DNA of 64,000 nt from an uncultured Bacteroidales bacterium (GTDB lineage Bacteria; Bacteroidota; Bacteroidia; Bacteroidales; UBA932). Location of the stretch: positions 9,794 to 73,793 of the forward strand of contig CAMVGM010000004.1 of the NCBI GenBank assembly GCA_947167015.1, in the 5' to 3' direction. This document shows positions 24,885-42,277 of the stretch, in pieces; positions within the stretch are counted from its first letter, which is position 1, and every line of letters begins with the position of its first letter. The notes under the pieces are model-generated. The model had not been told where the DNA came from and did not search any database. It worked only from the letters and a program-made list of their open reading frames with translations. The translations under genes were made by a program, and so were the position numbers.

Positions 24885-26129
24885 ATGGACAAAAGAGTGG
24901 TTGTGACAGGACTGGGTGTCCTCTCTTGCATCGGCAACGATGTCAAGACTTTCTGGGACAATCTCATCCACGGCGTGTGCGGCATCGATTATATCACGGA
25001 ATTCCCCACCGAGAACCTCGCCGTCAAGATCGGCGGCATGGTACGGAACTTCAATCCCGAGGAATACGGCATGGACAAGCCGTTCATCCGCAAGCAGGAT
25101 CCCTTCACCGTCTTCGCGATGGCATCCGCCTGGCAGGCGATGCAGGATTCCGGCCTCGTTTCCGGGGAAAACATCGATCCGGCCCGGCTCGCCACCTACG
25201 TGGGCTCGGGCATCGGCGGCTTCACGACCATCCAGCGCGAGCTGGAGAAGTTCTTCGAGGACCCCTCCGGACAGTGGGTCTCCCCGAACTTCGTCCCCAC
25301 GATGATCAGTGACATGGCCGGCGGGCAGATCGCCATCAAGTTCGGCGCCCAGGGCTCCTGCATCGACATCGTGACGGCCTGCGCCACCTCCACGCACTCC
25401 ATCGGCGAGGCTTTCCGCGCCATCCGGCACGGCTATGCCGACGCCATCATCGCCGGCGGCACGGACCATTGCACCATCCCCATCGGCATCGCCGGTTTCG
25501 CCAACGCCAAGGCGCTCACCCGCGCCACCGATCCGCAGTATGCCTCCCTGCCGTTCAACGCCAACCGCAGCGGTTTCGTGATGGCCGACGGTTCCGCCAT
25601 CCTCATCCTGGAGGAGATGGAGCACGCCAAGGCCCGCGGCGCCCACATCTATGCCGAGGTCACCGGCTACGGCAGCACCTGCGACGCCTATCACGCCACG
25701 GCCCCGCGCCCGGAGGGCACCACCCAGGCGGAGTGCATCCGGATCGCCCTGGAGCAGTCCGGCTTCGATCCCGCGAAAGACAACGTGTACATCAACGCCC
25801 ACGGTACCGGCACCCTGCTGAACGACGTCGCCGAAACCAAGGCCTACAAGCTCGCGATGGGGGATTTCGCCTACAAGTGCCACATCAGCAGCACCAAGTC
25901 CATGCACGGCCACATGTTCGGCGCCACCGGCGCCATCGAGGCCGTCGCCACCGTCCTCGCCCTGCAGGAGGGGATCGTCCCGCCGACGGTGCATCTGGAT
26001 GCCCCGGACCCGGAATGCGACCTGGACTACACGCCGAACGTCGCCGTCAAGGCCGACGTCAACCTCGGCCTGTCCGATTCCTTCGGCTTCGGCGGGCACA
26101 ACGCCTGCCTGGCCTTCAGGAAGGTCTAG
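24885..26129 (+). CDS. fabF: Beta-ketoacyl-ACP synthase II
   Basis: RVVVTGLG, TACATS (catalytic Cys), NAHGTGT, STKSMHGH, SFGFGGHN. Confidence 0.95.
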   Translation: MDKRVVVTGLGVLSCIGNDVKTFWDNLIHGVCGIDYITEFPTENLAVKIGGMVRNFNPEEYGMDKPFIRKQDPFTVFAMASAWQAMQDSGLVSGENIDPARLATYVGSGIGGFTTIQRELEKFFEDPSGQWVSPNFVPTMISDMAGGQIAIKFGAQGSCIDIVTACATSTHSIGEAFRAIRHGYADAIIAGGTDHCTIPIGIAGFANAKALTRATDPQYASLPFNANRSGFVMADGSAILILEEMEHAKARGAHIYAEVTGYGSTCDAYHATAPRPEGTTQAECIRIALEQSGFDPAKDNVYINAHGTGTLLNDVAETKAYKLAMGDFAYKCHISSTKSMHGHMFGATGAIEAVATVLALQEGIVPPTVHLDAPDPECDLDYTPNVAVKADVNLGLSDSFGFGGHNACLAFRKV

Positions 26130-26156
26130 GCTGGCGTTGGCCCGAGGGCCTGATGA

Positions 26157-26199
26157 CCGGGGGACGAATCCCCCAGACCCCCTGCGTCGCTCCGCTCCT
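26157..26199 (-). repeat. Motif C (AGGAGCGNAGCGACGCAGGGG + GC hairpin)
   Basis: Same motif at 21633-21675 (+), 52842-52886 (+) and 52916-52961 (+). Confidence 0.8.
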
Positions 26200-26220
26200 G
26201 CCTTGCCTTTCTGACGCGAA

Positions 26221-26355
26221 AAGAGAAATCCAGCCAAAGAGCCTTGTGTAGCATTCTGGCTGGATTTCTCTTTTATCAAACGACCTCCCAGGGCACTTTC
26301 ATCCAAGAGAAGTACACCTAGACAGGCCCCAGGTGCCGTTATAGTGAATTTCTCC
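26221..26355 (+). repeat. Family-A repeat unit (perfect hairpin 26219-26274 + degenerate hairpin ~26307-26353) on the 3' side of HUH gene 1
   Basis: Collinear direct repeat of 27378-27512 (offset 1157 bp). Confidence 0.92.
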
Positions 26356-26369
26356 CAGGGCTGGAAACG

Positions 26370-27299
26370 CTACAGTTTGTTATAGAAGTACAGACAGCGA
26401 TTAATTTGGGGCTTGGGAACCTTATGCCCGTAATACAAGTCCCGGGCAATAGCGTCTTTCTGGGATTCAGACAATTGGTAAACAGAACTCTTCCGGAAAC
26501 GTCGCATATACTCCTCGTCGATCAAGGAACACACTTCCAGGTCGGAATATCCCTGTCGTGCATTCCGGCCATACTCGTTCGCAAACATCCTGGCCACTTC
26601 TTCCGTATTATGTTGAGGCTCCATCCCATTTAGCGTGATCCTGTCCGCCGTATTATTGTCTTCATCCTGTACTTTCAGCCACTCCTCTCGGCTCAGACGG
26701 TTCATATCGTACAGGAAGTTCCTGGGTGTCACGAAATACGCTTCCGCTTGCCGGATCTGCTCCACGGATCTGCGGGTGAAGATTCCGGATGAAGTCATCT
26801 CATAGGAATCCGGAAATTCGGATCGGCGCGGCAGGAATGACCGGATACTGTTCCGGTCGGTAATCAAGTCTCGTGGCTTCGTCCGGCAAAAATCGTTGGC
26901 GAACAATTCGTGGATACTGCTATGCAGGGTTCCGAAGGGAGTTGTCGCCTGTCCGTGGTGCAAGACGTTCCGGAGAATGTATGAAAAGGCAATCTCGATG
27001 TGGCGGAAGCCTTCCAGCTTCAATTGGAAGAACCCGGGATCACCCAAAGGACCCGTCCGGGCATAAATCCTGTTGAAATACCGGGTATAAGAACAGCGCA
27101 CTGAGCGGACCCAGGGCCCCGGTTCCTCGCAAAACAACCCGGTATGCTGATGCGTGGACATAGTGGAATCCACGATGATTTGAGTGTCGGTGCTGAATGC
27201 AGCCAGGGCCATACAATTGAACAGGGCACCCATATCTTCTTCCTTGCGGAAGGGCGCTTCCTGATGGGAGGTGAAACAGACGTGGTAGAAGTTTTTCAT
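26370..27299 (-). CDS. RAYT-like HUH/Y1 tyrosine transposase with C-terminal extension (paralog 1)
   Basis: N-terminal YH, F..EED, MSTHQH (HUH), SYTRYFNRIYARTGPL, YILRN (candidate catalytic Tyr); more AT-rich than neighbours; flanked by palindromes. Confidence 0.85.
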   Translation of the reverse strand: MKNFYHVCFTSHQEAPFRKEEDMGALFNCMALAAFSTDTQIIVDSTMSTHQHTGLFCEEPGPWVRSVRCSYTRYFNRIYARTGPLGDPGFFQLKLEGFRHIEIAFSYILRNVLHHGQATTPFGTLHSSIHELFANDFCRTKPRDLITDRNSIRSFLPRRSEFPDSYEMTSSGIFTRRSVEQIRQAEAYFVTPRNFLYDMNRLSREEWLKVQDEDNNTADRITLNGMEPQHNTEEVARMFANEYGRNARQGYSDLEVCSLIDEEYMRRFRKSSVYQLSESQKDAIARDLYYGHKVPKPQINRCLYFYNKL

Positions 27300-27377
27300 C
27301 CGTTTAAGTTTTGACGGCAAGTTAAAGAAAAACCCTCAAGTCGCAATCGATTCTGGCGACTTTTTTTCTGCAGCGGC

Positions 27378-27512
27378 AAGAGAAATCCAGCCAGAATACC
27401 CTGCAAGGCACTTTGGCTGGATTTCTCTTTTGTCAAACGGCCTCCCAGGGCACTTTTTACAGGGAGAAATACACCCGGACGGGCGTCAGAAGGCGTTTTG
27501 GCGGATTACTCC
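27378..27512 (+). repeat. Family-A repeat unit (hairpin 27378-27429 + degenerate second hairpin) on the 5' side of HUH gene 1
   Basis: AAGAGAAATCCAGCCA-N20-TGGCTGGATTTCTCTT then TCAAACGGCCTCCCAGGGCACTTT, matching the 26221 unit. Confidence 0.92.
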
Positions 27513-27517
27513 GTCAT

Positions 27518-28609
27518 CTAGTCGCCGGCTTCTTTGAGGCGCTCGGCGTTCTCGGCGATCTGCAACTGGTCGATGCATTCCTGGATGTCGCCGTCCATGA
27601 ATACGGGCAGGTTGTACATCGACCAGTTGATGCGGTGGTCGGTGACACGGCCCTGCGGATAGTTGTAGGTGCGGATCTTGGCGGAGCGGTCGCCCGTGGA
27701 GACCATCGTCTTGCGCTTGGCGGCGATGCCGTCCAGGTACTTCTGGTGCTCCAGGTTGTACAGGCGCGTACGCAGTTCCTCGAAAGCGCGGTCCTTGTTC
27801 TTCAGCTGGGAACGCTCCTCCTGGCACTGGACCACCAGGCCGGTGGGGATGTGCGTCAGACGCACGGCGGAGTAGGTCGTATTGACGCCCTGGCCGCCCG
27901 GGCCGGACGCGCAGAAGAGGTCGAGCCGGATGTCGTCCCAGCTCAGGTCCACGTCGAATTCGCCCGCCTCCGGGAAGACCGCCACCGAAGCCGCGGAAGT
28001 CTGGATACGGCCCTGCGTTTCGGTCTGGGGCACCCGCTGGACGCGGTGCACGCCGGATTCGTATTTCATCACGCCATAGACGCCGTCGTTGCCCGAAAGC
28101 TTGAAGACGATCTGCTTGAAGCCGCCGGAGGTGCCGGGCGCCTGGTCGGTGACCTCCAGTTTCCAGCCGCGGCGCTCCGCGAAGTGCTGGTACATCCGGA
28201 AGAGGTCGCCGGCGAAGATCGCCGCCTCGTCGCCGCCGGTGCCGCCGCGGATCTCGACCATCGCGTTCTTACCGTCGTCGGGATCGGCGGGGATCAGCAG
28301 GAGCTTGATCTGCTGCTCCATGTCCGGGATCTGCGGCTCGATCTCCGCGATCTCCATGCGGGCCATCTCCCGCAGTTCCTCGTCCTTTTCGTTCATGAGG
28401 ATATCCTTGGCGGCATCCAGGTCCTCAAGCAGTTTCTCATACTGCTTGCCGGCCTTGATGATCGGCTCCAGCTCCTTGTAATCCTTGTTGAGCTGGACGT
28501 ATTTCTTCATGTCCGCCATCGCCTCGGGGCTGGCGAGCTGCTCCTGGAGCGACTGGAACTTCCCTTCGAGGGAAAGGACCTTGTCGAGGAGGGAATTGGT
28601 ATCTGCCAT
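27518..28609 (-). CDS. prfA: Peptide chain release factor 1
   Basis: GTGGDEA, ESGVHRVQRVPQTE (PxT), SGPGGQGVN, RTYNYPQGRVTDHR. Confidence 0.98.
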   Translation of the reverse strand: MADTNSLLDKVLSLEGKFQSLQEQLASPEAMADMKKYVQLNKDYKELEPIIKAGKQYEKLLEDLDAAKDILMNEKDEELREMARMEIAEIEPQIPDMEQQIKLLLIPADPDDGKNAMVEIRGGTGGDEAAIFAGDLFRMYQHFAERRGWKLEVTDQAPGTSGGFKQIVFKLSGNDGVYGVMKYESGVHRVQRVPQTETQGRIQTSAASVAVFPEAGEFDVDLSWDDIRLDLFCASGPGGQGVNTTYSAVRLTHIPTGLVVQCQEERSQLKNKDRAFEELRTRLYNLEHQKYLDGIAAKRKTMVSTGDRSAKIRTYNYPQGRVTDHRINWSMYNLPVFMDGDIQECIDQLQIAENAERLKEAGD

Positions 28610-28612
28610 AGG

Positions 28613-29731
28613 TCAAATGTGCTTGATGTAACAGCGGCGGCGCATGAAGGGTTCGCGCTCGTAGCTGTTCCAGATGTTGACGGCGCTGTTGGACTCGATC
28701 TGCGGATTGGAGATCGCCCAGCGGTTGCCTATCTTGAGGGCCTTCTCGGCCATCGCTTCGTAATACATCGCCGAAACGCCCTTGTTCTGCCATTCGGGGG
28801 CGGCGCCGTTGACCATCAGGTCGGTCACCTCGTAATCGTGCATCGCACGGAACAGGTGCCACCAGCCGAAGGGGAACAGGCGTCCCTTCGCCTTCTGGAG
28901 GGCCTTCGAGATGGTCGGGAAGGCGATGCCGAAAGCCACGATCCCGTCGTGCTCGTCCAGCACCAGGCAGCTCGTCTTGTCGGAGATGAAGGGCATCACC
29001 GCGGCCGCCTCCTCGTCGATCTCCTCCTCGGTCAGCGGGACGTAGTTCTGGACCGTACGGGCGAAACTCTCGTTATAGACACGGAAGAAGCGGCGCACCT
29101 GCTCCTTGTCCTTCTTCAGCTTGTCCAGGCTGCCGAAATGCAGCTTGTAGCGCTCCTGGACGATCTTCGAGACGCGGCGCGCCTTGTCGGGGACGCCGTG
29201 GTTCGCCACCAGGCGGTACTGCAGCCAGTCGCATTCCTTGGCGTAGCCCAGTTCCTCTACGAAGTCCTTGTAGTACGGGTAATTGTAGAGACAGTTGAAG
29301 GGCGGGATGTTCTCGTATCCCTCGACCAGCATGCCCTGTTTGCCGAAGGTGTTGTAGTACAGCGGCCCGTGGATCTCGTCCATCCCTTGTTCCCGCGCCC
29401 AGGCCTCGGCGGTGCCGAGCAGCAGGCGCGCCACCTCGATGTCCTTGACACAGTCGAACCAGCCGAAACGCGCGCGCTTCTTGCCGTAGAGTTCGTTGTA
29501 GCGGGGATTGACCATGGCGCAGATGCGTCCGGCCACGCGCTCGCCGTCCAGCACCAGCCACATCTTGCGGGTGCAGTATTTCAGCGGCGCGACCCGGGTC
29601 AGGGAGCGTTCCTGGTCGGCATGCAGGGCAGGCACGTACTGGGGACAGTCCTTGTAGAGTTCATCCGGGAATTGGATGAACTGCATCAGCTGTTTCTGGT
29701 CCAGGACCTCTTGTACTTTATAATCGGGCAT
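28613..29731 (-). CDS. Tandem-GNAT acyltransferase (YghO-like; possible bacterial ceramide synthase homolog)
   Basis: FIQFPDELY, VAGRICA, RFGWFDC, AEAWAREQGMDEIHGP, YNYPYY, GRLFPFGW, WQNKG. Confidence 0.75.
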   Translation of the reverse strand: MPDYKVQEVLDQKQLMQFIQFPDELYKDCPQYVPALHADQERSLTRVAPLKYCTRKMWLVLDGERVAGRICAMVNPRYNELYGKKRARFGWFDCVKDIEVARLLLGTAEAWAREQGMDEIHGPLYYNTFGKQGMLVEGYENIPPFNCLYNYPYYKDFVEELGYAKECDWLQYRLVANHGVPDKARRVSKIVQERYKLHFGSLDKLKKDKEQVRRFFRVYNESFARTVQNYVPLTEEEIDEEAAAVMPFISDKTSCLVLDEHDGIVAFGIAFPTISKALQKAKGRLFPFGWWHLFRAMHDYEVTDLMVNGAAPEWQNKGVSAMYYEAMAEKALKIGNRWAISNPQIESNSAVNIWNSYEREPFMRRRCYIKHI

Positions 29732-29809
29732 TTCGAATCAATTGTCGTAGTCTGCAAAGATAGCGCAAAACGCCCATCTTTGCAAATCTCCCGGTTGGCG
29801 GGAGTCAGG

Positions 29810-30913
29810 TCAGTCAACGTTGAAACGGACGTCCTCGAACAGGGAAAGCATACCCCACATGGCATCCTCGTCCGGGGCCTCGGCGCGCATCACGGCGCGG
29901 CATTGCTTGTAACCCTTGGCGGCAAACAGGCCCTCCACTTCCCCTGATCCGAATCGTTCGCCCTCGTAGCGGACGTACTGGCCCCAGTCGGCATCCAGCG
30001 CTTCCCAGGCGGAGAAACGCCCGTCCATGTCGAAATCGACATCGTCCTCCAAGGCGGTCATGTCCGCGCTAAGATCCTTCCGCAGCACACCCTGCCACGC
30101 AGCTTCGTCCGAGGTGTCCAGCGGCGCTCCGGCCAGCCAGAAACGGAACAGGCCGATCACGTCGCCTATCGTGCCCAGCTTGGTCAGGCGGAAGGAAAGC
30201 TCGTCCGGCTTTTCGGACAGGATTTCGACGTCGTATTCCATATTGTCGAACCCCAGTTCGATGAGTTCTCCGAGGCTGAGCGTCTCCCAGGTGTCCCCGT
30301 TGTCGATGATTTCCTCAAATTCCGCTTCGTCCTCCTCCCCGGCGGGCTCGCGCGGCTCCGGTTCGGGGTACACGATACCCCGGAAGATGTCCATGAACGC
30401 ATCCCGGGAAGCCGCGTTGTCGCATTCGCCGTACATCACGGTCACGTACAGGCCGGCTCCGTCCGCGGCGATGGCGCCCCAGACCGGCTTATGCTCCCGT
30501 TTTCCCATAAAGGGATGCCAGGCGCCCGCCCCTACGGGGGAATCGGGATTCAAGGAATAGTTCTTCAAGCCCCCCTCCTGGCCCCATTCGGCTTCGAAAA
30601 AGCCGTCCGACACACAGAACTCCCGCCACCACAAATCCACTTCCTCCATGAACATCTCGGAACGCTCCGCATCGGACGCTTCCAGATAGACCGTATCCCC
30701 GTGGATGGCAAAATGCATCCAGTTTTCCGGTTTTTCCTTCTCCACCAGGTCGAAATTGACCCCGTAATCCTCGTCCAGTTCCCGGATCACGTAGCGGGCG
30801 GAATCGTAGGAGAGCTTGACCCCCTCCCACTCGTAAGCCGCTTCCGACGAAGCGTTCTGCGCGCAGGCGCAGACGCACGCCGCGGCCAGTGACAGCAGGA
30901 ACATATTTTTCAT
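29810..30913 (-). CDS. Hypothetical acidic lipoprotein
   Basis: MKNMFLLSLAAACVCAC lipoprotein-like signal; fills the gap in a same-strand operon; no family recognised. Confidence 0.7.
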   Translation of the reverse strand: MKNMFLLSLAAACVCACAQNASSEAAYEWEGVKLSYDSARYVIRELDEDYGVNFDLVEKEKPENWMHFAIHGDTVYLEASDAERSEMFMEEVDLWWREFCVSDGFFEAEWGQEGGLKNYSLNPDSPVGAGAWHPFMGKREHKPVWGAIAADGAGLYVTVMYGECDNAASRDAFMDIFRGIVYPEPEPREPAGEEDEAEFEEIIDNGDTWETLSLGELIELGFDNMEYDVEILSEKPDELSFRLTKLGTIGDVIGLFRFWLAGAPLDTSDEAAWQGVLRKDLSADMTALEDDVDFDMDGRFSAWEALDADWGQYVRYEGERFGSGEVEGLFAAKGYKQCRAVMRAEAPDEDAMWGMLSLFEDVRFNVD

Positions 30914-30917
30914 ACGA

Positions 30918-32219
30918 TCAGATGCTGAAGTTGTGCCAATGGGGCCCGAAACGGCGGAAGGCCTCGCGGTCGAGCATCTCCCGGTCGTCCGGGTGGGCGA
31001 TGCTGATCATCAGTTTGGCGCGCTCCTGCAGGCTCTTGCCGTACAGGTCCACGGCACCATATTCGGTCACGATCCAGTGCGCGTCGGCACGGGGCGTCAC
31101 CACGCCGGCGCCCGGATTGAGCTGCGAGACGATCTTGTTCTTTCCCTTCAGGGTGCGGGAGGCGAAGGCGGTGATGCTCTTGCCGCCTTCCGACATCGTG
31201 GCGCCCTTGACGAACTCGACCTGACCGCCGGTGCCGCTGAAGATGCGCTCGCCGATGGAATCGGCGCTGATCTGGCCGGTGAAGTCCACCTCGGTGGCGG
31301 AGTTGATGGCCTTCATCTTGGGGTTCTGGCGGATCACCCAAGGGTCGTTGACGTACTTGATGTCGCGCATCAGCACGTCCGGGTTATGGTCGATGAAGGA
31401 ATATACCTCGTTGGAACCCAGCAGGAAAGAGGCGACGACCTTGCCGGTGTCGATCTTCTTGTTGCGGCCGTCGATCACCCCCGCCTTGATCAGGCGGAGC
31501 AGGCCGTCGGCGAACATCTCGGTATGCAGGCCCAGGTGCTTGTGGCCGCCGAGCTGGGCGGCGAGGGCGTTCGGCAGGGCGCCGATGCCCATCTGGATGC
31601 AGTCGCCGTCCTCCACGAGGGCCGCGCAGTTCTTGCCGATGAGCACCTCGGTGGGGGTGGGCTCGGCGAAGGCCGCCGTCACCAGCGGGGTGTCGTCCTG
31701 CACCAGGTAGTCGAACTTCTCCAGCGGGATGAGGTCGCCGTAGGCATACGGCACGTTGGGATTGACCACGCCGATCACCACCTGCGCCGTCTCGATGGCC
31801 GCCACGGAGCAGTCCACGGAGGTACCGAGGCTCACGCGCCCTTCCTCGTCCGGCAGGGACACGTTGACCAGCGCCGCGCCCAGCTTGATGAAGCCGTCCC
31901 GGTAGAGTTTCTGGCTCTCGCCGAGGTGTACGGGCAGGTAGTCGGCATAGCCGGCGTTGACATTCGCGCGGACGTTGGGTCCCACGAAGAAGCCCTGCTC
32001 GAAAAAGATCCCCTCGTAACGCGGCTCGCTGTAGGGAGCGGGCCCTTCCGTATGGAAATGGTGGAACTGCAAGCCCCGGACATCTCCGGCGTCCGCCCGG
32101 CGGCAAAGGGCCTGGATCAGGCAATGCGGCACGCTGGCGACGCTGCTCAGGTGGACGTGACAGTTGGAAGGGATGTGGCTGACCGCCTCGTCGGCGGAAA
32201 CGTATCTGACCGGCTTCAT
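30918..32219 (-). CDS. Acetyl-CoA hydrolase/transferase family (4-hydroxybutyrate CoA-transferase-like)
   Basis: SLGTSVD, QMGIGALP, HTEM, INSATEVDFTGQ, SGTGGQVEF, VTEYG, IAHPDDR. Confidence 0.93.
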   Translation of the reverse strand: MKPVRYVSADEAVSHIPSNCHVHLSSVASVPHCLIQALCRRADAGDVRGLQFHHFHTEGPAPYSEPRYEGIFFEQGFFVGPNVRANVNAGYADYLPVHLGESQKLYRDGFIKLGAALVNVSLPDEEGRVSLGTSVDCSVAAIETAQVVIGVVNPNVPYAYGDLIPLEKFDYLVQDDTPLVTAAFAEPTPTEVLIGKNCAALVEDGDCIQMGIGALPNALAAQLGGHKHLGLHTEMFADGLLRLIKAGVIDGRNKKIDTGKVVASFLLGSNEVYSFIDHNPDVLMRDIKYVNDPWVIRQNPKMKAINSATEVDFTGQISADSIGERIFSGTGGQVEFVKGATMSEGGKSITAFASRTLKGKNKIVSQLNPGAGVVTPRADAHWIVTEYGAVDLYGKSLQERAKLMISIAHPDDREMLDREAFRRFGPHWHNFSI

Positions 32220-32269
32220 TTCGGAGAATATTGATTATTTTTGCAAGCGCAAATGTAGCAAATTATTCC

Positions 32270-33061
32270 ATGCATACCAAAGAAGAAAAGCTTGCCGCCT
32301 TCGCCCGGCTGCTCGATACGATGGACGCGCTCCGCGAGAAGTGTCCCTGGAACGCCGCGCAGACGATGGAGACCATCCGTCCGATGACGGAAGAGGAGGT
32401 GTATGAACTGAGCGACGCCATCCTGAAAGGCGACCGCGCCGCAACCGCAAAGGAAATCGGCGACCTGCTCTACCACCTGGTCTTCTATGCCCGGATCGGG
32501 CAGGAGGAGGGCTCCTTCGACATCGCCGACAGCCTGGACAAGGTCGTGGACAAGATGGTCTTCCGCCACCCGCACGTGTTCGGTCCGGAGGCCGGAAAAC
32601 CCACTTCCGCGAAGGAGATCGCCGACACCTGGGAACTCGTAAAAGCGAAGGAAAAGGACGGCAACAAGACGGTCCTGTCCGGCATCCCGGACGCGATGCC
32701 CGCGATCCTGAAGGCCCTGTCCATGCAAGAGAAGGCCCGCGGCTGCGGCTTCGACTGGGAGCGGCGCGAGGATGTCTGGGACAAGGTGCACGAGGAATTG
32801 AGCGAGGCCCGGGAAGCCTGCACCGAGCAGGATCCGCGCCATATGGAAGAGGAATTCGGCGACCTGCTCTTCGCGGTCATCAACGCCGCGCGCCTGTACG
32901 GCGTGGACCCGGAAGCCGCCCTGGGCGGCAGTTGCAGCAAATTCCGCCGCCGCTTCGGCTACCTGGAAGAGCAGACCCTGAAAAAAGGGCGCAAACTCAC
33001 GGACATGACCCTCGCCGAGATGGACGCCATCTGGGACGAGGGAAAAGCCAAAGGTCTGTAA
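32270..33061 (+). CDS. mazG: Nucleoside triphosphate pyrophosphohydrolase MazG
   Basis: LREKCPW, EEVYEL, EIGDLL, RHPHVF, GFDW, EEEFGDLLF. Confidence 0.96.
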   Translation: MHTKEEKLAAFARLLDTMDALREKCPWNAAQTMETIRPMTEEEVYELSDAILKGDRAATAKEIGDLLYHLVFYARIGQEEGSFDIADSLDKVVDKMVFRHPHVFGPEAGKPTSAKEIADTWELVKAKEKDGNKTVLSGIPDAMPAILKALSMQEKARGCGFDWERREDVWDKVHEELSEAREACTEQDPRHMEEEFGDLLFAVINAARLYGVDPEAALGGSCSKFRRRFGYLEEQTLKKGRKLTDMTLAEMDAIWDEGKAKGL

Positions 33062-33068
33062 ATCAAGA

Positions 33069-33680
33069 TTATATCAGGCCGGCGCGCCGGCCGAAGTCGA
33101 TGATGAGGTCGGCGCAGCCTTCGAGGCCGACCAGGGAGGAATCCAGGCAGAGGTCGTAGTTGGACGCCACGCCCCAGTTGCCCAAAGTAAAGAAGTTGTA
33201 ATAGTCCCGGCGGTTCTTCTCCTTGCGCTGGATGTATTTTTCGGCTTCCGCCGCTTCCATCCCCGTCCGTTCGCAAACCCGCTTGACCCGGTCTTCCATC
33301 GGGGCGCAGATGAACACGTCCAGACACTCCATGTCGCGGAGCACATAGTCCGACGCACGCCCCAGGAAGATGGCGCTCCCCTGCTGCGCGATGTCGCGGA
33401 TGGCCTGGCTCTGATACTTGAAAAGTTCCGTCCCGTCAATGGCGGAAGGGGCATAGGAGCTCGCCCGGTTCAGCCCGAACAGGCTGCCGAAACGGAAGAG
33501 CCGCTTGCGCTCGTCGCTCTTCTTGAAGAAAGCCGGGCTGAAGCCGCTTTCTTCCGCCGCCTTCCGGATCAGTTCGTTGTCATAGACCGGGATGCCCAGC
33601 CGCTCGCCCAGGAGGGCGGCGACCCCCCTGCCGCCGGCGCCGAACTGGCGTCCGATATTGATGAGGATGCGCTTTTCCAT
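33069..33680 (-). CDS. Cytidylate kinase-like family protein
   Basis: IGRQFGAGG, LGRASDYVL, RRDYYNFFT..WG..NYDLCLDS. Confidence 0.9.
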   Translation of the reverse strand: MEKRILINIGRQFGAGGRGVAALLGERLGIPVYDNELIRKAAEESGFSPAFFKKSDERKRLFRFGSLFGLNRASSYAPSAIDGTELFKYQSQAIRDIAQQGSAIFLGRASDYVLRDMECLDVFICAPMEDRVKRVCERTGMEAAEAEKYIQRKEKNRRDYYNFFTLGNWGVASNYDLCLDSSLVGLEGCADLIIDFGRRAGLI

Positions 33681-33684
33681 AAAC

Positions 33685-35085: not shown

Positions 35086-35088
35086 CCC

Positions 35089-36105
35089 TTAGGGCTTATC
35101 GACGATCTCGATGTCGAAGCGCAGCGGAGAGTATCCCGGGATCGAAGTCCCGGAGCCGTTGCTGCCGTAGCCGACGCCCGAGTAGAACACCGCGGTGCCC
35201 TTCTCGTGCGGGTGCATCTTGCTCAGCGCATAGGCGAAGCCGTCTATCACCGTCGAGCCGCCCATCTTGATATCGGTGTAGGTGCCGTCCGCGTTGTACC
35301 AGGTGACGGCGGTCGGGGCGTAGGTCCGGGATGCGGAATACAACCCGTAGAACTTCGCGCTGTCCTTCACGTTGGTATCGAAGACGTGGCCGTCCAGCAG
35401 GCGGCCCACATAGTTGATGTAGATCGTGGTATCGATGGGGAACTCCTCCTCGGAAGAGGGAGCGGCGCCGCGGACATAGTAGAAACCGTACTTGAGGGAG
35501 TCGCCGGCGCTTTTCCCGGGGAACGTGGCCGTCACGTAGCGGCCCACGGAATCCGTCTCCCATTTCTTGATGTCGGGGATGACCTCCAGCAGCCCCACCT
35601 CGTAAACGGCGCTGGTGCCGTTCACCTTGGCCAGGTATTCCTCTTTCGCGGCATAGCGGCTGGTCGTATTCAGCCAGCCGGGAATCGCGACGGTCCGGAT
35701 GCCGCCGGTCCGCATCGATTCGAGCGCGTCGTCGAGTCCGGCAGCAAGCTGCCCCTCGCCGCGCTGCCAGATCTCGGGTCCGTAGTAGTCCTCTTCATCG
35801 TACTCCCCGATGCGCTGGGCCACTTCCTTGAGGGAGGTGGACAGGACGGTGCCGTCCATGTCGCTGACGATGTAATGCACGCGCACATAAGGATTCGCCT
35901 TGGCGGTGCCCGCCTCGGTTCCCGAACCCGTTGTTTCGGAAAGCACGTAGGCACCCAGGCCGGACGCGACGGCGTCCGGGTGGTTTACATGGATCCAGGC
36001 GTCGAAATACAGCTTGGCGCTGTCGTTGAGCCCGGGTGTCGGCGCCTTGGCGCAGGCACAGAGGACCAGCGCAATGAGCGCCGCATATGGCAGGTTTCTC
36101 TTCAT
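35089..36105 (-). CDS. Lipoprotein with two FKBP-type PPIase domains
   Basis: Lipobox LCAC; NYVGRLLDGHVFDTN, VIDGF, GYG..IPGYSPLRFDIEIV; degenerate first FKBP domain. Confidence 0.88.
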   Translation of the reverse strand: MKRNLPYAALIALVLCACAKAPTPGLNDSAKLYFDAWIHVNHPDAVASGLGAYVLSETTGSGTEAGTAKANPYVRVHYIVSDMDGTVLSTSLKEVAQRIGEYDEEDYYGPEIWQRGEGQLAAGLDDALESMRTGGIRTVAIPGWLNTTSRYAAKEEYLAKVNGTSAVYEVGLLEVIPDIKKWETDSVGRYVTATFPGKSAGDSLKYGFYYVRGAAPSSEEEFPIDTTIYINYVGRLLDGHVFDTNVKDSAKFYGLYSASRTYAPTAVTWYNADGTYTDIKMGGSTVIDGFAYALSKMHPHEKGTAVFYSGVGYGSNGSGTSIPGYSPLRFDIEIVDKP

Positions 36106-36108
36106 ATC

Positions 36109-37176
36109 CTATCGGTCTTGGAACGGCGCTTCATTCCGCATAAATCGTGCCGTCACGGTTTCTATGTACTGGGCCGCCATTTCCCTGGCGGGGATGTCCT
36201 GGGGGAAGAACAGTTTGCCGCCCGCGGCGCACAGATGCCCCCCGCCGTGGAAGGATTCCGCCGCAAGGCGGTTGGCGGCGACGCCGCGCTTGGAACGGAT
36301 GGACACGCGGAAATGCCCGTCGTCCTCGCGCAGGAACAGGCTCATGCGCACCCGCCCGATCCCGAGCGGCAGGTTCACGAAGCCTTCTGTGTCGCCTTCG
36401 CCGATCCCGAGCGCCTCCTGCGTCCGCCGGTCCAGGATGGCATAGGCCACTCCGTCCGGGGTGATGTGCATCAGGCGTTCGAGGTAGCAGCCCATCGCCC
36501 GGAAGCGGTTCTCGCCGTAGCTGTTGAACAGCGCGTCCAGCAGGGCGTCGCGGTCCACGCCGGCCGCCAGCAGCTCGGAAGCCATCCCGAGGGTGGACGG
36601 GAAGACGGAGTTCGCGAAATTGTTCGTGTCCGCCGTCATGCCGGCCATCAGCGGGGTGAGGACCTCCAGCGGCAGCCGGTCCGCCCGGCCCACGCCCGGC
36701 AGGGCGAGCAGGACGTGGTAGAGCAGCTCGCTCGCGGAGGAGACCTCCGTCTCGCTGAACGTGAGGTCGAACCAGGCCTCGTCGGGGCGGGGATGGTGGT
36801 CCACCAGCACCTTGCGGGCGGAAACGGCGCGCAGCGGCGCCTCCAGCTCTCCCGCACGGCCGGGGCCGTTCATGTCCAGGCAGAACAGCAGGTCGCACCC
36901 GGCGAGGCGGGCCAGCGCCCCGGCAGGGTCCGCGGACGCCACCGTCACGCCGCTTTCCGGAACGAGGAAATCCAGGATCCCGGCCGCCGGATCGGGCAGC
37001 AGCAGGTCGGCCTGGAGGCCCCGGCAGTCCCGGAGATACGCCAGCAGGGCGGTTCCGCTGCCGACCGCGTCCCCGTCGGGGTGCGTATGCACGACGACGC
37101 AGGCGCGAGCTGCACCGGCGATCAGCGCTTCCAGGCGCTGGATTTTGGCGGATGTCACCGTTTTCACTTGTTCCAA
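36109..37176 (-). CDS. nrnA: DHH-family phosphoesterase (NrnA-like)
   Basis: HTHPDGDAVGS, DHH, SSASEL, ADT, SIRSK, GGGH..AAGG. Confidence 0.9.
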   Translation of the reverse strand: MEQVKTVTSAKIQRLEALIAGAARACVVVHTHPDGDAVGSGTALLAYLRDCRGLQADLLLPDPAAGILDFLVPESGVTVASADPAGALARLAGCDLLFCLDMNGPGRAGELEAPLRAVSARKVLVDHHPRPDEAWFDLTFSETEVSSASELLYHVLLALPGVGRADRLPLEVLTPLMAGMTADTNNFANSVFPSTLGMASELLAAGVDRDALLDALFNSYGENRFRAMGCYLERLMHITPDGVAYAILDRRTQEALGIGEGDTEGFVNLPLGIGRVRMSLFLREDDGHFRVSIRSKRGVAANRLAAESFHGGGHLCAAGGKLFFPQDIPAREMAAQYIETVTARFMRNEAPFQDR

Positions 37177-37270
37177 AAAACTTCTGCAAATTTAATAAGA
37201 ATATTGCATTTGATAAATCATTTTCATAACTTTGTGGGACTTTGGAAATCAAATAAAACTAACCGATACA

Positions 37271-37972
37271 ATGAACAAAGCAGTTAAAATTCTCGTAGAG
37301 GTCCTCTTGCTGGCAGCCATCGCCGGTCTGGCCTATCTGCTGTACAGCAACATCATGCAGCCCGTCAACTTCAACAAGGAGAAAGCCTCCCGCCAGGCGG
37401 TCGCCGTCCAGCGCCTCAAGGACATCCGCACCCTGCAGGTGGCCCACAAGTCCGTCACTGGCAAGTTCAACTCCTCGATTGACTCCCTCAAGCAGTTCTA
37501 CGAGACCGGAACGATGGATATCGTGATGCAGATCGGCTCCATGGACGACTCCATCGCCGTCGCCAACACCGAGGCCATCAAGAAGGCCAACCGCAAGCTC
37601 AAACCGGAGCAGCTGACCGAGAAGCTCGCCGAGGCCTACGCCGCCGGGCAGAAGGTCGTGTATTCCCACACCACCAAGATCCCGGTCCGCGACACCCTCT
37701 TCAACAACCGGCCCGACTTCTGCATCGACTCCCTCAAGTATATCCCGTTCTCCGGCAAGGAGCCCATCCAGATGGAGTCCGCCGTCAAGATGGTTTCCGG
37801 CGTGCCCGTGCCCCTCTTCGAGGCCCGCATCCCCTGGAAGTCCCTCCTCAAGGGCATGAACAACCAGCTCCGCATCAACCTTGACGCCGAGAGCCGCGAC
37901 ATGAACCGCTACGAGGGCCTGCAGGTCGGTTCCATCACCGCCCCGAACAACAACGCAGGCAACTGGGAGTAG
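37271..37972 (+). CDS. Conserved hypothetical membrane-anchored protein
   Basis: N-terminal TM helix; GC-rich codon bias; C-terminal LQVGS..NAGNWE; first gene of the DUF3822-rsmD cluster. Confidence 0.8.
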   Translation: MNKAVKILVEVLLLAAIAGLAYLLYSNIMQPVNFNKEKASRQAVAVQRLKDIRTLQVAHKSVTGKFNSSIDSLKQFYETGTMDIVMQIGSMDDSIAVANTEAIKKANRKLKPEQLTEKLAEAYAAGQKVVYSHTTKIPVRDTLFNNRPDFCIDSLKYIPFSGKEPIQMESAVKMVSGVPVPLFEARIPWKSLLKGMNNQLRINLDAESRDMNRYEGLQVGSITAPNNNAGNWE

Positions 37973-38430
37973 TGTTCACCCTCGTCCCCTCCCATTTCTT
38001 CGATCCGGCCACCGCACGGGATGCACTCTGTGAAGTGGCGCCGCTCAAGGACGGGGACACGGTGGAATACGTAGAAATACCTCAATACGATGCTGTCCTC
38101 GTCTATACCCAAGACGGGGACAGCGCCGTTTCTGACCGGCCCGAGATCTACCGCATCCTGACGCGGCTGCCGGCCTGTCCCGAATACAACAAGATCCTGT
38201 GCAGCCACCAGGACGGCCGGCTGTACCTCGCCGTCGCCCAGGGCAAGAACCTGCTGCTCGCCAACAGTTTCCCCGCCCCGGACTTCACCACCGCCGAGTA
38301 TTACATCTTCCTCGCGCTGAATTCGCTCCAGCTGAACCCGGAAATCTCCACGCTCTGTTCGCTGACGCCCCTGGACGCCGAGGATGAAATGTCGCTATAC
38401 CGCTATTTCAAGGCGGTGGAACGCCTATGA
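37972..38430 (+). CDS. DUF3822-family protein
   Basis: FTLVP..FF, LLLANSF, EYYIF, LYRYF; directly upstream of rsmD. Confidence 0.65.
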   Translation: MFTLVPSHFFDPATARDALCEVAPLKDGDTVEYVEIPQYDAVLVYTQDGDSAVSDRPEIYRILTRLPACPEYNKILCSHQDGRLYLAVAQGKNLLLANSFPAPDFTTAEYYIFLALNSLQLNPEISTLCSLTPLDAEDEMSLYRYFKAVERL

Positions 38431-38960
38431 GGATCATCGGCGGACGGCTCAAGGGAAAACCCATCCTGCCCCCGATGGGATATGGCGCACGGCCCACCAC
38501 GGATTTCGCCCGGGAGGGCCTGTTCAACGTCCTGAACAACGAATACGAATTCGAAGACCTCTGCGTGCTCGACCTGTTCGGCGGCACGGGGGCGGTCGCC
38601 TACGAGTTCGCCTCGCGCGGAGCCGCGCGCGTCTATAGTGTGGAAATGAACCGCGACCACGCCGCCTTCATCCGGCGCGAAGCCGCCCGCCTGGGCCTGG
38701 ACAACGTCACGGCCGTCCACGCCAACGTCTTCGACTTCCTGCCCATCTGCCACGAGAAGTTCGACATCATCTTCGCGGACCCGCCCTATGCCCTGGAAGG
38801 CCTGGAGGGCATTCCGGACAAGGTCTTCTCCCGCGACCTGCTCCATCCGGGAGGCTATTTCATCCTGGAGCACGGCGACGAGCACTCCTTCGCGGGACAC
38901 CCCTTCTTCAAGAAGGAAAAGGTTTACGGCCGAGTGCATTTCAGTTTTTTCGAAAAATAG
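38427..38960 (+). CDS. rsmD: 16S rRNA m2G966 methyltransferase RsmD
   Basis: MRIIGG, RPTTD, LDLFGGTG, DIIFADPPY. Confidence 0.95.
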   Translation: MRIIGGRLKGKPILPPMGYGARPTTDFAREGLFNVLNNEYEFEDLCVLDLFGGTGAVAYEFASRGAARVYSVEMNRDHAAFIRREAARLGLDNVTAVHANVFDFLPICHEKFDIIFADPPYALEGLEGIPDKVFSRDLLHPGGYFILEHGDEHSFAGHPFFKKEKVYGRVHFSFFEK

Positions 38961-38990
38961 ATCCGGGTTGCAACAACCCGGATTCTTTTT
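38961..38990 (+). terminator. Intrinsic terminator after rsmD
   Basis: ATCCGGGTTG-CAA-CAACCCGGAT followed by TCTTTTT. Confidence 0.8.
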
Positions 38991-38995
38991 CGTTA
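38969..38995 (+). promoter_or_regulatory. Candidate ECF-sigma promoter (TGCAAC-N16-CGTTA)
   Basis: AAC/CGT elements with a 16-nt spacer immediately upstream of an ECF sigma gene. Confidence 0.5.
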
Positions 38996-39007
38996 TATAA
39001 GCAGAAA

Positions 39008-39514
39008 GTGTCCGAGATGACGAGACAGGAGATCAGCGAATTCTACCGGGAACATCACCGCCGGCTGTACAACATCAGCCTGCGCATCCTCCGGGACCCC
39101 GCGGAAGCCGAAGAGGTGATGCAGGACACCCTGCTGAAATACCTCTCCGCCCCCGGCACCTTCGCTTCCCCCGCCCAGGTGTCCGCCTGGCTGGCCCGCA
39201 CCTGCATCCGCGCCTCCATCGACCGCCTGCGCAAGAAACGGCGGCACGACGCCTTCCTGGAAGATTACGCCCTGCAGGAAGACGCGCAGGGCCAGGACGA
39301 AACGGAAGATCCCGGTCCGCTGCCGGACATCTCGCAGGTCCGCACGGCGATGGACGCCCTGCCGGAGCCCTACCGGCTGGTGCTCGGCCTGGTGCTGATC
39401 GAAGGCCTGGACTACGGCGAGATCGCCGCCCTGACCGGCCGGAAAGAGACGACGCTGCGCTCCCTGTACGCCCGGGGACGCCATAAACTGATTGAATTGC
39501 TGAAAGAGATATGA
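39008..39514 (+). CDS. ECF-type RNA polymerase sigma factor
   Basis: EAEEVMQD, AWL..SIDRLRKK (region 2); LPEPYR..EGLDYGEIA (region 4); start may be the ATG at 39017. Confidence 0.93.
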   Translation: MSEMTRQEISEFYREHHRRLYNISLRILRDPAEAEEVMQDTLLKYLSAPGTFASPAQVSAWLARTCIRASIDRLRKKRRHDAFLEDYALQEDAQGQDETEDPGPLPDISQVRTAMDALPEPYRLVLGLVLIEGLDYGEIAALTGRKETTLRSLYARGRHKLIELLKEI

Positions 39515-40026
39515 ACGATCTGGAACGATACATCCGCGAGCACGCGGCACAGTTCGACACGGCGGAGCCCGCCGAGGGCCACGAGGCGCGCTTTCTCGCC
39601 CGGGCGGATAACGGGGTCTGTCTGTTCCCTGCGGGCGGCCGGAAATTATTTCGCTCCGCCCTCCACGACGCCCCCGCACGGAAATCCTTGTTCCTCCGCC
39701 CCGTCGCCTGGGCCTTCGCCCTTGCCGCCGCCGTCTCCCTGCTGCTGGTCATCCGGCCGGGGGCATCCCGCCATTTCCTGGGCGTCCCCGACAACCCGGA
39801 ACGCGTATATCGCTCCTACCTCGCCCAGGTCGAACGCGCCTACCGCGAGTTTCCCTGGGAAGACGCCGACGGATGGGAGCAGACCCTGGACGAACTGACG
39901 GAAGAGCCCGTGAGCCTGTACGAGCAGCTCCCGGAGGAACTGCCCAGGCGCCAGCAGGCCCGCATCCTCAAGGCGTACTACGGCGGCATCCTCGATGAAG
40001 TGAATCAACTGAAAAACAAACGATGA
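39511..40026 (+). CDS. Putative anti-sigma factor
   Basis: Overlaps the sigma stop; FDTAEPAEGHEARF N-terminus, single TM helix. Confidence 0.7.
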   Translation: MNDLERYIREHAAQFDTAEPAEGHEARFLARADNGVCLFPAGGRKLFRSALHDAPARKSLFLRPVAWAFALAAAVSLLLVIRPGASRHFLGVPDNPERVYRSYLAQVERAYREFPWEDADGWEQTLDELTEEPVSLYEQLPEELPRRQQARILKAYYGGILDEVNQLKNKR

Positions 40027-40027
40027 T

Positions 40028-40960
40028 ATGAAAAAGATCCTTTCCCTCCTCGCGGCGGCCCTGCTTGCCGCCCTCCCCTTCCAGACGGTCCGTGCCGCGG
40101 TCCCCGACCCCGCCGCCGCTTCCCGCGAAACGCGCGACTACCAGCTCCGCGGCTTCGACGGGCTGGACATTTCCTGGACCTTCAAAGTGGAACTGACGCG
40201 CGGGAGCCGCTACTCCGTTCGCGTGGAAGCCCCGGACTTCATCTTCCCCTACCTGAAGGTCGAGGTCAAGGGCGGCGTCCTGACGCTGGGCACCGGCGAA
40301 CTGCCGAGAGACATCCGGCGGAAGATCGAGGCGCTCAGCCGTTCCGGCGAAATCCGCGCCAGCGTGACCATGCCCGAACTCTGCTCGCTCGAGATGTCCG
40401 GAGCCGCGCAGCTCAACACCCGGGATGAATTCCTGCACCGCAATGACAAGTTCAGGATGCGGCTCAGCGGAGCGGCTTCCGCCCACGGGCTCTCCGTCAA
40501 GGCGATCGACGCCGACATCGACGGCAGCGGTGCCGCCAAGTTCGACCTGAAAGGCGAATTCGACCGGGTGGACCTGCGTATGTCCGGTGCAGCGAACGGA
40601 AAGTTGGAATCGTCCCCGAAAGTAGTGGACGCAAACCTGTCCGGCGCGGCGAAACTTGACTGGACGGGCCGGCTGGGCAAGACCGGGATCCTGGCTTCCG
40701 GCAGCGCCAACCTCGGAATCGAAGGCGCCGCGGCGGAACTGAACGTGAACGGGTCAGGAGCCGCCAAGGTCCGCGCGGGCCAGGCGGCATCCCGCACGGC
40801 CGAAGTCCGGCTGTCCGGTGCCGCTTCCTGCGAACTCGATGTCCGGGAATCCCTCAGCGTCAACCTGTCCGGCGCTTCCTCCTGCCGCTACCACGGCACC
40901 GACGCGCTGCGCGTCACCACGCAGTCCGTCTCCCGCGGCGCCTCGCTGACGCGCTACTAA
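40028..40960 (+). CDS. DUF2807 / GIN-domain secreted protein
   Basis: Signal peptide; many SGA(A/S) beta-helix repeats. Confidence 0.88.
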   Translation: MKKILSLLAAALLAALPFQTVRAAVPDPAAASRETRDYQLRGFDGLDISWTFKVELTRGSRYSVRVEAPDFIFPYLKVEVKGGVLTLGTGELPRDIRRKIEALSRSGEIRASVTMPELCSLEMSGAAQLNTRDEFLHRNDKFRMRLSGAASAHGLSVKAIDADIDGSGAAKFDLKGEFDRVDLRMSGAANGKLESSPKVVDANLSGAAKLDWTGRLGKTGILASGSANLGIEGAAAELNVNGSGAAKVRAGQAASRTAEVRLSGAASCELDVRESLSVNLSGASSCRYHGTDALRVTTQSVSRGASLTRY

Positions 40961-41021
40961 GGGGGCATGCCCCGAATCCCTGCGATACTCCCCTGGTCAT
41001 AGCCGCCCCAATCGGCCATCC

Positions 41022-41154
41022 CTGACAGGTCTCCAGCAAAACGCCTTCCTGTGCGTTCTGGCTGGAGACCTGCCAGTGTTTTAGGCTGAAACGGGCTATT
41101 TAAGGCGAGAGGTCTCCAATTCTTTGGCGCCAGAGGCCGTTTTGGTGAAGACCT
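41022..41154. repeat. Family-B hairpin pair B1 (41022-41076) and B2 (41110-41154)
   Basis: CAGGTCTCCAGC-N23-GCTGGAGACCTG; degenerate copy 83 bp downstream. Confidence 0.92.
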
Positions 41155-41155
41155 G

Positions 41156-42082
41156 TCACAATACCAGGCAACGGTTTATCTGGGACGGAGCCAAATGGAA
41201 TCGACGGGACAAATCGACTCCGATGCTTTTCCGTTGTTCCCAGTTCAGCTGATAGACGGAAGCCTTATGGTAACCGGAAACGTATTCATCATCAATAATC
41301 CGGCACACATCCTGATCAGAGAGTCGGGACGGAGAATACAGATGTCCTTTTTCGCCGGCGAGCATCTTGGATATAGATTCATAAGTGTTTGCCGGCTCCA
41401 GCAATTCCAGGGTAATGGGGTCGACGTTACTCGGATCCTGCTGTTGCTCCCGCTGCCACTCCTCGCCGGAAAGACGGCTCATATAATAATCGAAACACCT
41501 TGGCGTCCGATAGTAGTGTTCCACAAGTCCGAGGTTTTCGAAACTGCTACGCATAAGCATCCCGTCCCGGTCCATCGCAAAGTGGTCGGGAAACGGGGAG
41601 CGCCGGGGAAGACACCGGGCTATGTCAATGCGGGATGTGATGGCCGGGACACAGGCCTCTTTGCCGAGGTCCTTTCGGAACAGATGGTTCGCCGAGCAGT
41701 GCGGGTATGAAAAAGCAGTGGCGCTCTGTCCATGGTGCAGTCCATTTCGGAGCACATAACTGATTGCCGCAAGAATATGGTTATTCCCATCCAGACAGAG
41801 CAGGAAATAGCCCGGATCGAACAAGGGACCTTGCGCTAAATGCCGTGCGCGATGATATTTGGTAATCCGCATCTTGAGGATGCGGCAAAAGCGAATGATG
41901 GCCTGTTCATCCGCATATCCGATACCATGGATGTGGGTGGACATCACGGCATCGACCCAGAGTTCCACCTGGCAGTTGAAAGCTTCCAATGCCAGGATAT
42001 TGGTGATCTGCCGGACATCTTCTTCGTCCCGGAACAGGACTTCAGCGTGACAGGTAATACAAAAATGAAAGAGGCTTTTCAT
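41156..42082 (-). CDS. RAYT-like HUH/Y1 tyrosine transposase with C-terminal extension (paralog 2)
   Basis: FH, LFRDEED, MSTHIH (HUH), GPLFDPG, YVLRN; shares LPRRS, TPR, RLS.EEW, SVYQL and QINRCL with paralog 1. Confidence 0.85.
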   Translation of the reverse strand: MKSLFHFCITCHAEVLFRDEEDVRQITNILALEAFNCQVELWVDAVMSTHIHGIGYADEQAIIRFCRILKMRITKYHRARHLAQGPLFDPGYFLLCLDGNNHILAAISYVLRNGLHHGQSATAFSYPHCSANHLFRKDLGKEACVPAITSRIDIARCLPRRSPFPDHFAMDRDGMLMRSSFENLGLVEHYYRTPRCFDYYMSRLSGEEWQREQQQDPSNVDPITLELLEPANTYESISKMLAGEKGHLYSPSRLSDQDVCRIIDDEYVSGYHKASVYQLNWEQRKSIGVDLSRRFHLAPSQINRCLVL

Positions 42083-42144
42083 TGTTCAAGTTCTTCTTGT
42101 CTGCAAGATAGCAAATCCCCTTTTCGTTCGCAAACAAATCCGAT

Positions 42145-42277
42145 AGGTCTCCAGTAAAACAGGTTCTGGTGCAATAGAACTGGCGACCTCCCCCGCCGAA
42201 TGGTCGAAAAAGGTCCAAAACACCAACAGGTCTCCAGCAAAACGCCTATCTGTGCGTTCTAGCTGGAGACCTGTCAG
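42145..42277. repeat. Family-B hairpin pair B3 (42145-42189) and B4 (42227-42277)
   Basis: AGGTCTCCAG at 42145 and 42228 (83-bp period); B3 resembles the reverse complement of B2. Confidence 0.92.

Follow-up and report, generated by a model that had tools for sequence, protein, structure and literature searches.

The window analysed here, a 64,000-nucleotide stretch from an uncultured rumen member of the Bacteroidales (G000:C4:9794-73793, in a 2.46-Mb assembly that is 78% complete and has 62% G+C), carries two paralogous genes for Y1 HUH nucleases, g1 and g2, each flanked on both sides by structured repeat units of its own family. We observed that these units are built of four short arms whose spacing, in this genome and in relatives, falls mainly on a ladder of whole helical turns. 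The nearest protein homologues are annotated as Bacteroidia or Bacteroidales, and the best DNA matches come mostly from sheep and bovine gut metagenomes. The gene g1 lies between the convergent genes fabF and prfA, and g2 has a convergent DUF2807 gene on one side and an SDR gene on the other; the G+C content of both nuclease genes is 51-52%, against 62% for the window. The two genes and their flanking units are the following.

26370-27299, minus strand: g1, a 309-residue Y1 HUH nuclease (length counted from the ATG) with predicted TnpA(REP) fold, motifs MSTHQH and YILRN, and inserted and C-terminal helical domains.
26219-26356: family A unit downstream of g1, with a perfect hairpin at 26219-26274 and a degenerate partner; period 84, loop 28.
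27378-27512: family A unit upstream of g1, which matches the downstream unit as a direct repeat (148 nt, 75%), with the loop of the perfect hairpin flipped.
41156-42082, minus strand: g2, a 308-residue paralog with motifs MSTHIH and YVLRN, residues H50, H52 and Y109, and a predicted homodimer.
41022-41156: family B unit downstream of g2, abutting the stop codon; period 83, loop 27.
42143-42277: family B unit upstream of g2.

The proteins are 41% identical over 308 columns, and both motifs that the initial annotation had described for two paralogs of about 309 residues (MSTHxH and Yx(L)RN) are present. The AlphaFold model of g2 (mean predicted local distance difference test score, pLDDT, 91.8) gave as its top Foldseek match the E. 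coli TnpA(REP) structure 4ER8 (E 2.5e-5). In structural comparison this match, which concerns the overall fold, reached Z 14.0 (152 aligned residues, root-mean-square deviation 2.6), compared with Z 8.2 for IS608 TnpA, and H50, H52 and Y109 were invariant in 47 of 47 homologues. Both g1 and g2 have the predicted TnpA(REP) fold, with HUH and a single Tyr, in agreement with the RAYT-like identity first proposed for them. The ratio of nonsynonymous to synonymous change (dN/dS about 0.08-0.15) indicates purifying selection on the nuclease family. Sequence profiles were far less informative: the Pfam search returned no match for g1 or g2, Y1_Tnp matched two of the 47 homologues (best E 0.012, short of the PF01797 cut-off), NCBIfam NF047646, with a cut-off of 80 bits, scored g2 at 26.8, did not match g1 and matched 38 of the 47 homologues weakly, and the sequence search of the PDB gave no match. 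The Tyr motif is mostly YxLRNG; YxLRNP variants occur in 21 of 135 members (among the 12 commonest patterns), the class 2 signature being YxxxNP.

The family extends well beyond this pair, with 174 clusters at 50% identity (E up to 1e-30). Eight full-length members are present in G000, namely g1, g2 and six more distant ones, and the two clades compared align to g2 over the full length of g2. Moreover, g1 and g2 occur separately in relatives: g2 is present while the fabF-prfA junction is free of g1 in G177 and G129, and g1 is present without a g2 match at E 1e-75 in G109 and G192. Therefore, the pair is not the two-gene system that had been described. Within the genus, 46 of 151 genomes, G000 among them, had a g1-like match (E 1e-20); outside it, only 8 of 300 genomes sampled from the phylum matched, weakly and in the N-terminal domain. 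These matches carry the subclass 2.1 motifs given in Table 1 of PMC6006769 (NHAH, FQ, YIHLNP), and their N-terminal domain aligns with a probability of 98.8 over 162 columns. Two close pairs of subclass-2.1-like transposase genes were seen, L278 with L274 (G526:C1, about 1.62 Mb) and L270 with L277 (G446:C2); the G526 pair adjoins a CRISPR-like array with a 67-bp period.

The prediction of a g2 homodimer scored 0.64, compared with 0.01 for the best control, with at least 95% of contacts in agreement between runs and pLDDT of at least 87; 20 of 30 solved pairs attained the mark used for this score, as did 1 of 23 single chains. The predicted interface comprises residues 115-142, 193-204 and 244-247, mostly in the stretch after the catalytic Tyr, where a domain of about 85 residues is inserted that does not align to the subclass-2.1-like matches from outside the genus. 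The protein is thus predicted to dimerise through the domain inserted after the Tyr.

The repeat unit consists of four arms of 10-14 bp in alternating orientation, with loops of 13-28 nt. All four flanks of g1 and g2 have the hairpin pair reported by the initial annotation, one near-perfect and one degenerate, spaced 84 bp at g1 and 83 bp at g2. The longest perfect stems measure 18, 16, 12 and 13 bp, whereas 200 shuffles gave means of about 5.9 and maxima of 10, 10, 13 and 10; at one g2 flank the perfect stem alone was therefore matched by a shuffle (13 against the observed 12). Genome-wide in G000, the arm-loop-arm pattern had six matches for family A and five for family B, compared with 0.1 with shuffled arms. 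The shared inner core TCCAGC holds for g1 and g2 locally but not generally, as g2 orthologues keep only TCCA and other clades nothing. Similarity between units stops about 3 nt beyond the outer arms, with no common flank. A GT[AG]G foot was not enriched at the arms (27 of 692 feet, 44 of 692 random windows), nor was GGGGWSAS (present in 16 of the 250 near flanks and in 9 of the 156 far ones); no target duplication was visible at the unit ends, and neither element contains an open reading frame of tnpB size. The absence of tnpB, target duplication and GTAG foot noted earlier for g1 and g2 therefore stands. Rfam gave no structured RNA match across 21000-43000. Long tandem arrays of units (at least five periods), like BIME amplification, were seen at L011, L013, L187, L193, L246, L253 and L262.

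The spacing of the units was examined with a detector left free over periods from 35 to 130 bp, which found units at 153 of 199 loci. The periods at these 153 loci were 51-53 bp (44 loci), 71-74 (32), 82-84 (66), 93 (1), 104-105 (3) and seven others; some of those near 100-105 are doubles of 50-52 bp arrays. Taken together, the unit periods lie mostly on a ladder of 42, 51-53, 62, 71-75, 82-84, 93-97 and 104 bp, at turns of about 10.4 bp, with 75 and 97 off it. After clustering at 70% identity, 92 of 100 clusters had a period within 1.5 bp of a multiple of 10.35, compared with 34% for far-flank controls, which exceeded the threshold in 8 of 224 cases with periods of 51, 52, 83, 84 or 102. The phasing prediction was fixed beforehand for three further clades, in which a unit was detected at 37 of 67 loci; 28 of the 37 periods lay within 2 bp of a multiple of 10.4, where 40% were expected, and two new rungs, 42 and 62, appeared. 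Phasing persisted when each clade and rung was given one vote (p 0.0002; 48 votes from 173 of 266 loci, under a stricter threshold) and when nine distinct rungs only were used with the helical repeat left free (p 0.004), these nine having been hand-chosen from the period lists with 75 and 97 included. A gene-blind scan of G000 yielded 23 units, 13 at 51-53 bp, five at 75 (one of them an unrelated repeat) and five at 83-84, of which 18 were in phase, and the same scan over 800 kb of G160 yielded five units, all at 51 bp and in phase. An autocorrelation detector that used no motif had lower sensitivity, with units at 51 of 135 loci; it caught unrelated tandem repeats of 36, 48, 57 and 78 bp and gave weaker phasing (R about 0.5).

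The DNA between the arms shows a periodicity of its own. By autocorrelation, AA/TT steps recur at 10, 20-21, 31 and 41 bp, with an amplitude of 0.107 over 105 units compared with at most 0.028 in 200 matched intergenic draws, and this periodicity was unchanged when the 5 nt beside each arm were masked; A-tracts in the loops and spacers are thus phased at about 10.4 bp. The 51, 75 and 83/84 bp families coexist in one genome, G000, and the period is specific to the enzyme clade. The literature searched, which covered few subscription papers and much of which was available in part, held no account of this nuclease family or of helically phased RAYT repeats; related repeats may be present in the repeat table of PMC6006769 and in Figure 9 and Additional files 4-5 of PMC3733652. 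The repeat geometry, a four-arm unit on a helical ladder, is the new part of the system and was not found in print.

The correspondence between enzymes and repeats was evaluated on 118 loci, obtained from 157 with a match through 152 of full length and 135 without near-duplicates by keeping those with both 300-nt flanks. The upstream and downstream flanks carried the same repeat, above threshold, at 68 of the 118 loci, compared with 0 of 87 for far flanks. A repeat match across loci was seen in about 1% of cases when protein identity was under 45%, rising to 73% when it exceeded 85%, and repeat similarity correlated with protein similarity (Mantel rho 0.27, p 0.002), although kin are not independent in this test. 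Among the 68 matching loci, paralogs of the same genome had a common repeat in 1 of 13 pairs, whereas homologues from different genomes had one in 90 of 131 pairs at 65% identity or more and in 56 of 1790 below 45%. The co-divergence of enzyme and hairpin suggested by the initial annotation is thus supported. Solo units of families A and B are present in G000 at low copy number. A strict family B pattern found 7, 16, 17 and 3 hairpins in four carriers of g2 and none in G242, whose homologue has a different arm, and strict matches numbered 3-17 per genome overall. The solo copies hold the exact loop length and period while the loop sequence turns over. From these data, we are confident that g1, g2 and their relatives are RAYT-fold enzymes with cognate dispersed repeats. 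The principle of one cognate repeat family per enzyme is not new, because PMC6006769 (here and below, papers are cited for the portions of their text that were available) states for tnpA(REP) in general that each gene has its own REP family and that several can exist per genome; novelty of the cognate families as such is accordingly not supported. The same source describes guide-less 'atypical' structures flanking a Bacteroidetes subclass.

The units were found at gene ends, near the nuclease promoter region, at solo sites and inside reading frames. Location at gene ends and close to the promoter region would suit autoregulatory operators or terminators of a domesticated nuclease with another cellular job, the repeats having spread passively, and helical phasing is typical of operator arrays. 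However, units flank the gene on either side and also occur at solo sites genome-wide and, apparently, within reading frames, and the catalytic residues are invariant, so that we hold this explanation to be highly improbable. Three members of the 51-bp family in G000 (C1:33196, C81:805 and C81:2260) are apparently inside reading frames, 51 bp being 17 codons; the unit at C1:33196 is missing from the syntenic junction region of G160, which differs by about 1.3 kb. Upstream of a tRNA gene, one and the same site is occupied by a family B unit at L294 (G177:C106) and by a 75-bp-family unit in G000 (C48:3625), and the tRNA of G177 at L294 carries an insertion of about 200 bp that is intron-like in appearance.

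The helical ladder and the phased A-tracts point to recognition of duplex DNA, an alternative that the initial annotation did not consider beside its single-strand hairpin reading. Both whole-turn spacing and the phasing of A-tracts belong to DNA in duplex form, and within a genome it is the enzyme clade that determines the rung; duplex-bound dimers are therefore favoured. We put at about even the chance that the enzyme binds its arms as a dimer on curved duplex DNA and then opens and nicks one strand. A single dimer would span one inverted arm pair, and two dimers would sit on the same face of the helix, one period apart, brought together by the A-tract bend. The single strand for attack by the Tyr may be supplied by supercoiling or a replication fork, and strand transfer would then deposit copies of the unit, and on rare occasions of the entire gene together with its units, at further gene ends. 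In this model it is the protein, rather than a DNA guide, that would confer specificity by recognising the 10-14 bp arm, and therefore arm and enzyme would drift together and paralogs in the same cell would keep separate families. A wider proposal, which we advance tentatively and at somewhat short of an even chance, is that the family is a radiation of dimeric HUH nucleases that dropped DNA-guided single-strand recognition and read short arms on curved duplex with whole-turn spacing, giving dozens of orthogonal enzyme-arm pairs, up to eight or more per genome, that mobilise units and occasionally their own gene.

Several observations weigh against duplex recognition by a dimer. The E. coli TnpA(REP) enzyme has neither binding nor cutting activity on double-stranded substrates (PMC3333891), and it is a monomer; an enzyme of this kind, ignoring duplex, leaves the coordinated cutting of two ends unexplained (PMC3479197). 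The units fold well as single strands, and part of the loop sequence is self-complementary, reaching about 60% at some positions. The analysis found no cut site, and attempts to align the solo family B units of G000 to clean empty sites did not succeed. For the C-terminal three-helix domain, fold searches gave no clear match (best Z 5.2, DnaA Z 3.6); this domain is homologous to the tails of sister clades, which end HTH-like (as in a helix-turn-helix), but in the g1/g2 clade the tail stops before the last helix of that end, and none of the Pfam families Bac_DnaA_C, HTH_23 and HTH_28 gave a match. The detector left 46 of the 199 loci, and 30 of the 67 in the further clades, without a unit. The 75-bp period (5 of 23 units in G000 and seven held-out loci) and the 97-bp period (two loci) lie 2-3.5 bp off the 10.4 ladder. 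Furthermore, three inherited rungs hold most loci, and therefore the independent changes of period are few (16 by parsimony, noise included).

The main rival explanation is ordinary REPIN/REPtron chemistry, in which single-stranded hairpins are bound at forks, spacings are inherited, and phasing arises from host selection (supercoiling, nucleoid proteins, gyrase, or termination at convergent gene ends) or from mutational bias. We regard this as a substantial possibility, if not the outcome we would expect. The closest fold is that of TnpA(REP), which acts on single strands only (PMC3333891), and REPINs are likewise four-arm doublets, for which spacings of 71 bp and 110 bp are characteristic and which can fold either as a rod or as a clover (PMC3116915). 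Rod and twin-hairpin folds are about equally frequent among the units (111 to 94), loops are flipped between copies, as template switching at hairpins would give, and Helitron minisatellites are described as remodelled to the helical repeat by mutational bias (10.64898/2026.08.08.743475, a 2026 preprint). This explanation remains strong because the nearest solved enzyme ignores duplex, REPIN spacings are fixed and loops can extend hairpins. On the other hand, the period tracks the enzyme clade and not the host, with 51, 75 and 83/84 bp side by side, and the constancy of loop length and period in solo copies is unexpected from a host factor alone. There is no guide tetranucleotide, and arm mismatches show no strand bias (G.T 96, A.C 89), a weak test because the units occur in both orientations. 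In the duplex reading, the predicted dimer and the four helically phased arms provide a concrete and cheaply testable model of RAYT repeat recognition. The family is a natural library of co-evolved enzyme-site pairs for studying the drift of specificity, and it may be useful for orthogonal nicking or strand-transfer tools.

The fabF-prfA junction was short and empty in 13 of the 32 loci examined, and orthologues of g2 occupy at least six distinct gene junctions within one genus. Together with the low G+C, these observations would suit a true low-copy insertion sequence, TIRtron-like, in which the units are transposon ends, the gene moves with them and solo units are non-autonomous. Alleles of g1 at the same site also differ at synonymous positions (pS) by about 0.7, compared with 0.24-0.37 for host genes, but this gap may reflect in part the codon bias of the host (third-position G+C, GC3, 0.89 vs 0.64). 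Against this explanation, G000 has no recent duplicates (best paralog 41%), g2 orthologues stand at the same junction in the near-identical strains L119 and L120, and no target duplication was seen; searches of viral contigs and plasmids gave no match and no sign of carriage by phage or plasmid. We consider an insertion sequence unlikely. A clean filled/empty pair was seen elsewhere, at G160:C5:589685-590960, which holds a 51-bp-family nuclease with both units, and G000 C4:1002-1090, where the counterpart is a terminator-like hairpin.

The g1 locus itself has been shuffled, and it contains three further features.

21476-21792: inverted copy, 317 bp, 91.8% identical to 26040-26356, comprising the last 89 bp of fabF, the spacer and a whole family A unit.
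21476-21613: third family A unit, within that copy and beyond the range first annotated.
26157-26200: short repeat of another family, in the spacer and separate from the family A unit, with other copies in G000.

The small hairpin at 26157, from which the system had been said to start, thus belongs to another repeat, and it also stands in the g1-free fabF-prfA site of G177 (L050). Repeats of this type consist of a G-run/C-run hairpin followed by a fixed GC-rich tail and are located at gene ends; they were seen in G000 at C4:62657 (a 75-bp doublet), C8:23497, C71:2617 and C28 near 23850, and amplified in tandem after fabF in G397 (L051).

One boundary of the 317-bp copy coincides exactly with the outer arm of the unit; the junction on its other side resembles the 3' end of prfA, which suggests microhomology. 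The four carriers of g1 (G000, L003, G109 and G192) have four local gene orders, and in near-identical strains (three runs) 2370 other bases between 21464 and 22634 replace the fabF copy and SASA. Among the joints listed from the contigs of four runs, none was an inversion joint between the 317-bp repeats. The NP-prfA adjacency is also present in two genomes whose carriage of g1 is not established, which argues against a causal role of the g1 element. The idea that the system remodels nearby DNA finds no support outside the g1 locus: breakpoints are frequent in the genus, but in one 800-kb comparison of G160 with G000, with junctions at G000 contig ends left out, 2 of 90 breakpoints lay near units, compared with 6 of 67 syntenic junctions (Fisher p 0.07, in the opposite direction). 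SASA was rejected as a fixed cargo, since it has the fabF-prfA interval to itself in G361 and G014, and its position differs among G109, G192 and G000. Between g1 and g2, an acidic 367-residue open reading frame of lower-looking G+C (29810-30913), with no Pfam match, has no counterpart at this place in either G109 or G160, and the two-gene block beside it (30918-33061) is inverted in several relatives, with no unit at the block ends.

Among known systems, IS200/IS605 (TnpA subclass 1.1) has a small TnpA with YxxxQ, often a tnpB, and recent identical copies, whereas here the proteins have about 305 residues and YxxRN, no tnpB frame is present, the best paralog is 41% identical and the IS608 fold scores below 4ER8. 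The REPtron of E. coli (TnpA(REP), 4ER8, REP/BIME; PMC3333891, PMC3479197, PMC8266576) shares the fold, the HUH motif with a single Tyr, alternating flanking repeats and one family per enzyme. Its enzyme is described as a monomer of 165 residues that acts on single strands only, with a GTAG guide, C|T cleavage and hundreds of REPs; in contrast, the proteins here have about 305 residues and are predicted to dimerise, no guide was seen, the loops span 13-28 nt and strict hairpins are few per genome. GTAG REPtrons make up subclasses 2.2, 2.4, 2.5, 2.7 and 2.8, and the GT[AG]G foot was not found here. REPIN-RAYT systems (PMC3116915; bioRxiv 10.1101/2021.07.10.451892) likewise have a dispersed four-arm doublet of characteristic spacing and co-evolution of enzyme and repeat, but their RAYTs are said to stay in one extragenic space, unlike the g2 orthologues; at least eight paralogs are present per genome here, and the word 'helical' is absent from the available text of PMC3116915.

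TnpA(Y1) subclass 2.6, from the same phylum, is described in PMC6006769 as having guide-less atypical secondary structures with genomic copies elsewhere, but with a median of 179 residues and the motifs WQ and YIH[QN]NP, both of which the consensus of 134 members lacks here. Close resemblance is also seen to TIRYT/TIRtron (TnpA(Y1) subclass 2.1, group 1 RAYT of Bertels; PMC3733652, PMC6006769, PMC5581495), a branch that was sparse in the literature searched, where biochemistry on TIRYT was not reported in the portions available. As described there, it likewise has a long Y1 HUH protein with a C-terminal helical tail, no GTAG REPs, and flanking inverted repeats, some of them self-complementary, in dimers or clusters and in families of modest size. 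It differs in having YxxxNP, vs mostly YxLRNG here, where the conserved W/FQ is lacking and the insert of about 85 residues follows the Tyr; most TIRs carry GGGGWSAS, not enriched here, and the available text of the three papers mentions no four-arm units on a helical ladder. On the best reading, g1 and g2 represent a RAYT variant related to TIRYT and subclass 2.1.

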